In this document: one piece after another, positions 14,234 to 42,752 of the stretch | How the letters are laid out: every line of letters starts with the position of its first letter | Numbering within the stretch: position 1 is the first letter of the stretch | Assembly: GCF_048403405.1 (NCBI RefSeq) | Contig: NZ_CP183129.1 | Length of the DNA: 64,000 nucleotides | Direction: 5' to 3' (one strand) | From: Escherichia coli | GTDB lineage: Bacteria; Pseudomonadota; Gammaproteobacteria; Enterobacterales; Enterobacteriaceae | Made by a program: the position numbers and the translations under genes | The notes under the pieces: model-generated | Told to the model about the DNA's origin: nothing | Seen by the model: the letters and a program-made list of their open reading frames with translations, nothing else | Databases searched by the model: none

Positions 14234-14476
14234 ATGCCGAAGAAAAATGAGGCGCCCGCCAGCTTTGAAAAGGCGCTGAGCGAGCTGGAACAGATTGTAA
14301 CCCGTCTGGAAAGTGGCGACCTGCCGCTGGAAGAGGCGCTGAACGAGTTCGAACGCGGCGTGCAGCTGGCACGTCAGGGGCAGGCCAAATTACAACAAGC
14401 CGAACAGCGCGTACAAATTCTGCTGTCTGACAATGAAGACGCCTCTCTAACCCCTTTTACACCGGACAATGAGTAA
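14234..14476 (+). CDS. xseB: Exodeoxyribonuclease VII small subunit (80 aa)
   Basis: ORF 14234..14476; [22 protein letters not shown]...; stop overlaps the ispA start. Confidence 0.95.
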
Positions 14477-39730: not shown

Positions 39731-41050
39731 TTAGTGAGCGCTGGAGGTCACCTGACGACCTGCCGCGCGATCCCAGATAATGGCCAGAACCACCATCACC
39801 ACTGTTGGCATTAACCACGCCAGACCTTGTTCGGCCAGCGGTAAACGCTGCGCCCAAGACGGTAAGATATCGCTGAATGCAGATGCTTTGATCCCGTCGA
39901 GAATACCAAAAAGCAGGCTGATAAACATCGGCGGAGCAATCACGCGGGACGAATTATGCCACCATGAGCGTGTAAAACTTAATACAACCAGTGCGATACA
40001 CGGCGGATAAATGGCGGTCAGCACCGGTACGGAGATCTGAATCAGCTGACTCAAGCCGAGGTTAGACACCACCATCGAGAAGCCGCCGAGGATAAACACC
40101 AGCGTACGATAAGAGAGCGGTACGTACTGGGCGAAGAATTCTGCACAAGCACAGGTCAGGCCAACTGCCGTGACCAGGCAGGCGATGAAGATTAACGCCG
40201 CCAGCAGGAAGCTACCGCCGCCGCCAAAGGTGTGCTGAACGTAAGCATGCAGAATAGCAGCGCCGTTTGCAGACTGATCGACCAGCGACGCGCTGTCTGA
40301 ACCCAGACGGAACAGCGCCAGGTACAGCAGAGTCAGACCGACACCCGCCATCAGGCCAGCCCAGACGGTATAACGGGTCAGCAGACGCGCTTCGGTAACG
40401 CCACGAGAACGCGCCGCGTTAACAATAACGATACCAAACACCATCGCGCCCAGCGTATCCATGGTCAGATAGCCGTTGACGAAGCCGTTAGAAAACGCAG
40501 CGTTTTGATAAGCCTCAGTCGCCGTGCTGATAGAACCCGCTGGCCAGACAATTGCGGCAACTGACAGGATGACCAGCGCGATAATTTTCAGCGGCGCAAG
40601 GAAGTTGCCCACGGTATCCAGCAGCTTGCCCGGATAGAGCGAAACCAGAATAACGATAGCGAAATAGACCAGGCTGTAGATAAACAGCGGCAGCGCGGAA
40701 TCACCCGTCAGCGGCGCAATCCCCACTTCAAAAGAAACGGTAGCTGTACGCGGCGTAGCGAAAAGCGGCCCCACCGCCAGGTAACACACCGTTGCCAGCA
40801 GTACGCCAGCGACTTTACCGATTGGCGTGCTGAGGCTGTCAACACCGCCGCCAACTTTTGCCAGCGCCACTACCGTTAATACCGGCAGGCCAACGGCAGT
40901 AATGAGGAAGCCGAATGCCGCAGTCCAGACGTGTTCGCCTGCCTGTAAGCCGACCATTGGAGGGAAAATAATGTTACCTGCGCCGACGAACAACGCAAAT
41001 GTCATAAAGCCCAGAGCGATGATATCGCGCGATCTTAATTGATGGGTCAT
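39731..41050 (-). CDS. brnQ: Branched-chain amino acid transport system II carrier BrnQ (439 aa)
   Basis: ORF 39731..41050; [42 protein letters not shown]... Confidence 0.95.
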
Positions 41051-41400
41051 AAATCATACTGCCTGTGGATGTGGTGTTGTAACGTTAAATTTTTGTGCCA
41101 ATCCCTGGGGATGATACAGCGGTATATTTAAACAATTTTAGCGGGAAATACTCCCAACCAGGCGCGGCGAAGAATAGTTTTTCGATTTACCGCGTGAATG
41201 CAGTCAGTATGACAGCACCTGAAGCGCAATTTAAACGCTTATAACGTTTTAAAGCAAGAAGGGATCTAAAAACCAGAGGTATATAGCGATAAGAAATCAC
41301 CAACCAGTATAAAACACTATTTCCGTGAAAAAGACATGGCTAATCATGCGAACAAAAAATCACCAACCGTTGTAAAATCTAACGCCCGTATTTTGACTGC

Positions 41401-41429
41401 AAAGAAAATAAGCCAGCATCGGCTGGCTT
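41401..41429 (-). terminator. Rho-independent terminator downstream of phoR
   Basis: aagccagc-atcg-gctggctt hairpin 28 nt after the phoR stop, followed on the minus strand by ATTTTCTTT. Confidence 0.7.
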
Positions 41430-41456
41430 ATGGCAATAAAAGATGACAAAGGCGGA

Positions 41457-42752
41457 TTAATCGCTGTTTTTGGCAATTAAACGTTCCGGGATAACAAAAC
41501 TGAAACGTGTTCCTTTTCCTACTGTACTCTCAATATTCAGGCGACTTTCGTGATGATTCACCGCATGTTTCACGATCGCTAACCCTAATCCGCTACCGCC
41601 GGTTTGCCGGGAACGCGCTTTATCAACGCGATAAAAACGCTCGGTCAGGCGCGGAATATGCTCCGGTGCAATGCCCGGTCCGTTATCTTCAACGCTAAAT
41701 TCGGCACCGTGCGGCACTCGCTGCCAGCGTACGGTGATATGCGTGCCTTCCGGCGTATGATTTACGGCGTTATAGACCAGGTTCGAAATCGCACTGCGTA
41801 GCTGATCTTCGTTGCCAGACACCTTGAGGCCGTTATCTATCTCAAAGGTAAATGTCTGTTTTTTCTGACTCAGAGTCTGAGCCTCGCGCTCAACAACGCG
41901 CAGCATCATCGGCACATCAACCTTTTCATTGAGCAAATGCGTCGGTGCGGCTTCTATTTTCGACAGCGTCAGCAATTGCTTCACCAGCCCTTCCATCCGC
42001 TGGGTCTGCTCGCGCATGGTGTGCAACGCTTTTTCACGTACCGCGCCTTCCAGCGGTTGCTCATCCATCATCTCCAGGTAACCCTGTAACACGGTCAATG
42101 GCGTACGTAACTCATGGCTCACGTTGGCAAAAAAGTTACGCCGCGCCCCTTCCAGTTGATGCATTTGCGTGACATCACGCGCCACCATCAGCAACTGTTT
42201 GTGGGTATAAGGCATGACGCGAATTTCCAGATGCCGCCCGGTGTTGAGCACCAGATTAAGCGGGCGAGAAAAATCACGCGTTTTCAGATATTGCGTAAAC
42301 TCCGGGTAACGCAGCAAGTTAAGGATGTTCTGCCCGTTATCTTCCGGCCAGCGCAAGCCAAGAATCTGTTGCGCCAGACCGTTGCACCAGAAAATACCGC
42401 CCTCTTCCGTGGTCAGCACCACCGCGTCGGGCAGCGACTCCGCGCCGCTACGAAAGCGTTTAATCAGATTGCCCAGTTCGCGGCGGCGTTTTTTATTTCG
42501 CAACTGCATCTGGTGTAATCCGTATAGCAGCGGTTCCCAGCTACCACGTCCCGGTGGCGGGGTCATACTACGATCCACCCACAGCCACCATGAAAGGCGC
42601 AATAAATTCCAGAAATGCCAGATAAGCAGTCCTGTTACCGATGCCAGCAAAAACCAGGGCAGGTAACCAAAAAATGCACCCAGGATGAAAGCCGGGAGGC
42701 AGCAAAGTAGCAGCTCCAGCACCAGCCTTTTCCACGACAGCCGTTCCAGCAC
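41457..42752 (-). CDS. phoR: Phosphate regulon sensor histidine kinase PhoR (431 aa)
   Basis: ORF 41457..42752; H-box ...[14 protein letters not shown]... and ATPase motifs. Confidence 0.95.

Follow-up and report, generated by a model that had tools for sequence, protein, structure and literature searches.

A direct repeat upstream of Escherichia coli brnQ and its possible relation to a phased array of Lrp-type sites

Lrp-controlled promoters and the brnQ locus

Promoters that Lrp binds as phased arrays, such as ilvIH, gltBDF, pap and dadAX, carry degenerate YAGHAWATTWTDCTR-like sites upstream of a sigma-70 promoter, spaced at ~31-32 bp and typically consisting of one good site accompanied by weaker ones, and they are bound by Lrp in vitro. 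At pap and ilvIH the Lrp sites are three helical turns apart, and two of the gltBDF sites are separated by a 63-bp gap. The region upstream of brnQ, as described below, appears to resemble these promoters in each of the former respects—degenerate candidate sites, their spacing and uneven quality, the sigma-70 promoter and in vitro Lrp binding—and brnQ, too, is an amino acid transport gene. It differs in that one of its candidate sites, centred at -124, is unusually invariant for an Lrp site.

Lrp is also known to connect the expression of importers to leucine: The yhjE promoter is strictly Lrp-dependent and leucine-repressed, and livJ and livK are induced when leucine is absent. By analogy, brnQ may obey the same logic as livJ, livKHMGF and yhjE, with importer expression tied to leucine via Lrp. 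For the latter genes it is Lrp-controlled expression that has been described, whereas for brnQ Lrp binding is on record in vitro only. A further regulator, the sRNA GcvB, targets brnQ through its R1 region, which was verified in Salmonella and is conserved in E. coli. In common with other amino acid transporter mRNAs under GcvB control, brnQ has a CA-rich site near its start codon, but this constitutes a separate post-transcriptional layer, with its target in the 5' UTR some 240 bp away from the repeats considered here, on their downstream side, and unrelated to them.

The window, by which we mean the whole 64-kb stretch of E. coli chromosome analysed here, carries phoB, phoR, brnQ and proY in this order on the minus strand. 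The spacer between phoR and brnQ measures 406 bp and is unannotated in RefSeq (Table 1). It is single-copy, at 95-100% identity, in 5424 of 5426 complete E. coli genomes, and so is the 111-bp stretch that holds both repeat copies (one copy in 5424/5426). Membership of a dispersed repeat family (REP/BIME, ERIC, MITEs) was rejected, as the repeats occupy one place per genome in 5424 genomes. An Rfam scan of the spacer, up to E = 10, left the repeats unmatched, as it did all of the spacer beyond the phoR terminator; its sole weak hit was tmRNA-like (7.5 bits) and lies outside them, at 41428-41479. In E. coli GDSC2BY4G (NZ_CP136025.1), an IS1A element is inserted at ~41406, where it separates the phoR terminator from the region upstream of brnQ.

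A single K-12 transcription start has been published for brnQ, at 418,645, with 54 reads and a 170-nt 5' UTR, preceded by the sequence ...CTTGCTTTAAAACGTTATAAGCGTTTAAATTGCGCTTCA (Kim et al. 2012, PMC3415461, Table S1). Mapped onto the window sequence, this start corresponds to position 41220, to which all signed positions below refer, and it is preceded by the sigma-70 core promoter given in Table 1; both repeat copies lie upstream of this promoter. A sigma-70 consensus scan of 40900-41600 detected no promoter. Between the -35 and -10 elements sits TTAAAACGTTATAA (41238-41251, minus strand, -31 to -18), a 14-bp near-palindrome centred on CG that is invariant in the species compared, beyond the needs of a sigma-70 spacer. 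We take it to resemble LacI-family operators (AAACGTT core); a literature search for brnQ together with PurR returned nothing relevant. Further downstream, the 5' UTR contains an invariant block, GGTAAATCGAAAAACTATTCT, at 41171-41191, as well as Lrp-consensus-like peaks at +43 and +74, 31 bp apart. RNAalifold, applied to the 5' UTRs of 19 species, yielded no consensus structure (-0.39 kcal/mol).

Table 1. Features of the phoR-brnQ region, with window coordinates; candidate Lrp-type sites are scored against the 15-nt SELEX consensus
Feature	Position	Strand	Sequence and remarks
brnQ	39731-41050	minus	
brnQ 5' UTR	41051-41219	minus	170 nt including start base 41220
CA-rich GcvB-type target	41064-41080	minus	ACAACACCACATCCACA; invariant in species compared
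brnQ core promoter, sigma-70	41220-41257	minus	-35 TTGCTT 41252-41257, 17-nt spacer, -10 TTAAAT 41229-41234
Lrp-consensus-like site, centre -61	41274-41288	minus	CGCTATATACCTCTG; 10/15 in E. coli
Repeat copy B (proximal)	41291-41314	minus	TTTTATACTGGTTGGTGATTTCTT on brnQ strand (AAGAAATCACCAACCAGTATAAAA on + strand); -94 to -71 from transcription start
Lrp-consensus-like site, centre -92	41305-41319	minus	TAGTGTTTTATACTG; 13/15
Lrp-consensus-like site, centre -124	41337-41351	plus	TGGCTAATCATGCGA; 11/15
Repeat copy A (distal)	41354-41377	minus	TTTTACAACGGTTGGTGATTTTTT on brnQ strand (AAAAAATCACCAACCGTTGTAAAA on + strand); -157 to -134 from transcription start
Weak candidate fourth site, centre -157	41370-41384	minus	CGTTAGATTTTACAA; 11/15 in E. 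coli
phoR intrinsic terminator hairpin (strong)	41408-41431	minus	upstream limit of brnQ control region
phoR	41457-42752	minus	

The direct repeat and its conservation

The initial annotation had pointed to two copies of a direct repeat upstream of brnQ. Both are indeed there, between the phoR terminator and brnQ: Over 24 nt they are identical at 20 positions, and they have in common an exact 12-mer, AAATCACCAACC on the + strand (41294-41305 and 41357-41368). Their separation, put at about 64 bp, is 63 bp from start to start, and the feature does not end at 41370, since the second copy extends to 41377. In copy B, the first 10 nt form part of the Lrp-like site at -92 and the remainder is linker. 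In copy A, the first 8 nt overlap the weak E. coli Lrp-like site at -157, and its T6 tail is the beginning of a block that is invariant in the family.

How unusual is such a repeat? When the 406-bp spacer was shuffled 2000 times with dinucleotide composition preserved, 20/24 was reached 0 times and an exact 12-mer 22 times. Real sequence is less forbidding: Sliding 406-bp windows across the whole 64 kb revealed a similarity of at least 20/24 at three loci, the other two of which lie inside coding sequence for repeated peptide motifs. The similarity is thus non-random, yet not extraordinary. The strongest local DNA repeat of the window (21/24, 35214/35250) stems from the K/E-rich repeat REKIAEKIAKKTEEENAKKIAKQNAK of a 489-codon ORF without a Pfam match (34666-36135, minus strand). 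Another 20/24 direct repeat, also 63 nt apart, is found at 14267-14353 and reflects an internal peptide repeat of a short reading frame, presumably xseB. As for the 12-mer itself, four one-mismatch copies occur elsewhere in the window, and the hint of a regulon that its excess might have given (6 matches, 0.5 expected) was discarded because all four lie inside long ORFs.

For a comparative view, brnQ loci were collected from 80 enterobacterial species and their upstream regions aligned. In the spacer alignment, near-invariant blocks alternate with variable stretches, and the 12-mer core falls into the latter in both copies. Identity between copies A and B, out of 24 positions, is 20 in E. coli (this window), 17 in four other Escherichia species, 8-14 (mostly 10-14) in Citrobacter and 3-13 in other genera, the background being roughly 6-8. 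All four other Escherichia species have the core GGTTGGTGA altered in at least one copy. Across the alignment it is in the core that both copies are conserved least, with the E. coli base present in just 2-4 out of 10 species at several core positions. Even within E. coli copy A is polymorphic: K-12 has ACGATTGG (19/24, with a mismatch in the core) and Ecol_276 has ACAATGG (21/24), while ~60% of E. coli genomes, sampled evenly down the ranking, match the window exactly over 111 bp. That sister species have lost the core GGTTGGTGATTT, which varies even among E. coli strains, argues against the 12-mer as a recognition sequence; its 12-nt identity lies in linker DNA, is specific to the E. coli lineage and is probably no recognition element. 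That orthologous brnQ promoters lack the repeats had been named as an outcome that would speak against their significance, and here the answer is divided: Outside Escherichia the 12-mer is indeed absent, whereas the underlying array of sites persists.

One natural strain departs from this organization. E. coli A39 (NZ_CP028737.1) carries an exact 63-bp deletion between the copies, whose junction lies within the shared core, leaving a hybrid copy (TTTTACAAC joined to GGTTGGTGATTTCTT) and a spacer reduced from 406 to 343 bp. The deletion takes out the -124 and -92 sites, with the phase retained. Among 5424 E. coli genomes, A39 is the only one with a 63-bp deletion and the only length variant found; an assembly error may be an alternative explanation.

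Candidate Lrp-type sites upstream of brnQ

Genomic SELEX placed an Lrp peak at K-12 418,534, in the phoR>brnQ spacer (Shimada et al. 2015, PMC5320599, Table S1). This corresponds to about 41331 in the window, or ~-111, between the two repeat copies, at the low resolution of an in vitro method that used 60-mer probes every 105 bp (about +/-100 bp). brnQ goes unmentioned in the Kroner preprint and in Ziegler 2023. We scanned the region with the Lrp SELEX consensus YAGHAWATTWTDCTR, a string that occurs in Lrp papers.

The best consensus match in the spacer is the candidate site at -92, which overlaps copy B. Over the 80 species its sequence differs (e.g. TGGCATATTATTTTG, CAGTCAATAAGTCTG, TAGCGAATTATTCTG) with the critical positions kept, so that its family mean is 10.9/15 as compared to a background of 6.2 +/- 1.8, a value that 0 of 5000 permuted consensuses equalled. 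With a family mean of 11.5/15, the -61 site ranks first among all positions in 7.3 kb of alignment; the family mean of the -124 site is 10.3. The columns that are invariant in the -61 site (A5, T6, A7, T12, C13, T14, G15) and in the -92 site (G3, C13, T14) are consensus-critical positions. The sharp peaks of the family-averaged profile (80 species) at -61, -92 and -124 are 31 and 32 bp apart; further peaks are seen at +43, +74 and -218. The weak candidate at -157, whose conservation across the family is limited to its AT-rich centre, is 33 bp away from the -124 site. If this candidate is counted in, the array reaches from -157 to -61 and its midpoint, -109, is close to the SELEX peak. Under random placement, three peaks chained at 30-33 bp are expected with p ~0.012, and six family-averaged peaks of which three neighbouring pairs are 30-33 bp apart with p ~0.0009. 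The majority consensuses of the -61 and -92 sites, CGGTATATTCTTCTG and TGGTGTTTTATTCTG, are alike, indicating that the truly conserved repeat has a period of 31 bp, which is invisible in E. coli alone.

Several controls bear on how these scores are to be read. Within the 64-kb window there are 15 matches of at least 13/15 to YAGHAWATTWTDCTR, as compared to 9 expected, which makes a single consensus match weak evidence, and in E. coli alone 19 spacer positions score at least 10/15. The 7.3 kb of aligned flanks served as a negative control, and there conserved coding sequence showed a family-averaged peak of at least 10 roughly every 300 bp. Even so, the 406-bp spacer holds three of the top six positions of the 7.3-kb alignment, including the strongest of all. 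When the ilvIH upstream region, the classic Lrp target, was scanned likewise as a positive control, a single 14/15 site emerged alongside several of 10-12/15, similar to brnQ.

The -124 site is embedded in the block TTTTTTGTTCGCATGATTAGCC (41338-41359, minus strand, -139 to -118), which is nearly invariant in the 80 species. This is far more than a degenerate Lrp site needs, and the block may therefore serve another factor.

Other candidates were considered for the region. Consensus scans for CRP, NtrC, sigma-54, IHF, Nac, ArgR, TyrR and PhoB returned none that was convincing. Activation through NtrC and sigma-54 (TGCACCA-N3-TGGTGCA; GG-N10-GC) was dismissed for want of a dyad and of a convincing sigma-54 element. 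A Fis-like match over copy A, GGTGATTTTTTGTTC, was set aside because its -3 position is unconserved in other genera, and phased A-tract curvature because the centres of the T-tracts, inspected by eye, are out of the 10.5-bp phase. A 16-codon ORF, MISHVFFTEIVFYTGW (41297-41347, minus strand), starts with an ATG at 41347 and has its TGA stop inside copy B. Its interpretation as a gene was rejected: A Shine-Dalgarno sequence is missing, roughly one species in four has lost the ATG, in about half of those that keep it the frame closes after only 7-19 codons, and the peptide is unconserved in its middle. In Citrobacter and Enterobacter the frame is open for 32-38 codons. The conserved C-terminal part of this ORF is simply promoter DNA.

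Interpretation of the repeat

What does the repeat represent? The conserved -124 and -61 sites start exactly 3 nt past the ends of copies A and B, respectively. Together with the overlap between copy B and the -92 site, this equates the 63 bp with two periods of the array. We favour, at a probability of roughly 0.55, the reading that the repeat copies are equivalent segments of a phased Lrp-type site array upstream of the sigma-70 brnQ promoter. The predicted sites at -61, -92 and -124 would then be spaced by 31-32 bp, i.e. three helical turns, with a weak additional site at -157 in E. coli, and each copy would combine the tail (3' part) of a site with the T-rich linker up to the conserved site that follows. 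On this account 63 bp would be 2 x 31.5 bp, or six helical turns, and the shared TTTTAYA and TTTYTT parts would reflect equivalent array positions. The identical GGTTGGTGA would fall within linker DNA and looks like a coincidence specific to the E. coli lineage; that the identity of the linkers has no explanation beyond coincidence speaks against this reading.

If so, an Lrp octamer (four dimers) or a higher oligomer could wrap roughly -164 to -54, with the proximal dimer adjoining the -35 region, where it might modulate the recruitment of RNA polymerase, and brnQ transcription would track leucine or the feast-famine state. Our guess, by analogy, is that Lrp activates brnQ at low leucine; we lean toward activation because the sites are purely upstream and because yhjE and the liv transporters are leucine-repressed and Lrp-dependent. 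Phased regulator binding sites, with Lrp as an example, had already been proposed in the initial annotation. This part is supported by the SELEX peak, the 13/15 match over copy B and the three conserved sites at 31-32 bp; the repeated 12-mer, however, is not the conserved element, and the period is ~31.5 bp, not 63. An ordinary Lrp-type upstream array of this kind is standard, routine Lrp-promoter architecture. A published list of Lrp targets already records binding to the spacer; what appears to be undescribed is the array at the level of single sites and the way in which the repeat relates to it. We know of no described Lrp array in which the linkers of alternate periods are near-identical, as they are at brnQ in E. 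coli.

Two other accounts of the similarity were weighed, both of which we regard as unlikely. One sees in it the eroded trace of an ancient tandem duplication, in which a 63-bp two-site module gave rise to a four-position array, and would be compatible with the Lrp-type array. The copies are exactly 63 bp apart, as are the conserved sites at -124 and -61; if a 1-nt indel is admitted, similarity runs on through (T)TCGC into the next site; the A/B identities in the four other Escherichia species (17/24) and in Citrobacter (10-14/24) exceed the background of roughly 6-8; and recombination between the copies does happen. Yet once the 24-mers are masked, the other 39 nt of each unit are without similarity (1961 of 2000 shuffles do as well), and both units are present in all genera with no 63-bp indel, so that any duplication would predate the family—and so early an event cannot account for an identity that peaks in E. 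coli and declines with distance. The same two observations, dissimilar masked units and no genus lacking a unit, exclude the recent small duplication that had initially been offered as an option; an ancient one is possible but unproven. The second account, about as doubtful, holds that the 12-mer identity is a coincidence in a T-rich upstream region and that the copies themselves are functionless, irrespective of which protein binds nearby. It is in keeping with the poor conservation of the core in both copies, its polymorphism within E. coli (19/24 in K-12, 21/24 in Ecol_276), the three loci of at least 20/24 in the real 64 kb and the absence of one unit from a natural strain. Pure chance, however, is at odds with the shuffling result for 20/24 (p < 0.0005) and does not predict 17/24 at a fixed orthologous pair across Escherichia species.

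Far less credible than either is that a dedicated regulator recognizes the 12-mer GGTTGGTGATTT and binds at two sites on the same face of the DNA, NtrC-like TGGTGA half-sites being one candidate. The 63-bp spacing does put both copies on one helical face, and TGGTGA agrees with five of the six bases of the NtrC half-site TGGTGC. In addition, a published genomic-SELEX peak for RpoN holoenzyme and NtrC is listed for the phoR/brnQ spacer, at K-12 418,832 (37%). But this peak maps to ~41033, at the start of brnQ and some 300 bp from the repeats, and no NtrC dyad is present, the best 17-nt pattern matching 10-11 positions including three free ones. Moreover, the core is unconserved in sister species and not fully conserved within E. 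coli, and the four one-mismatch 12-mers elsewhere in the window all reside within long ORFs.

We return to the Lrp-type array as the preferred reading of the repeat, and to what it may mean for brnQ. More speculatively, and with low probability, the near-identical linkers may render the array length-variable, or else TTTTTTGTTCGCATGATTAGCC and the CG palindrome of the promoter spacer may bind undescribed regulators of brnQ. If the former were true, unequal recombination or slippage would remove (as in A39), or could add, exactly two in-phase sites, generating natural alleles that tune brnQ expression with the helical phase undisturbed. The visible consequence of the 12-nt identity is that it provides a substrate for an in-phase 63-bp deletion, and A39 represents such a natural in-phase deletion allele. 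More generally, a repeat that stands out when a single genome is viewed can turn out to be the most poorly conserved stretch of a regulatory region. BrnQ is a low-affinity importer of branched-chain amino acids, and the present analysis provides a site-level picture of its probable wiring to Lrp.
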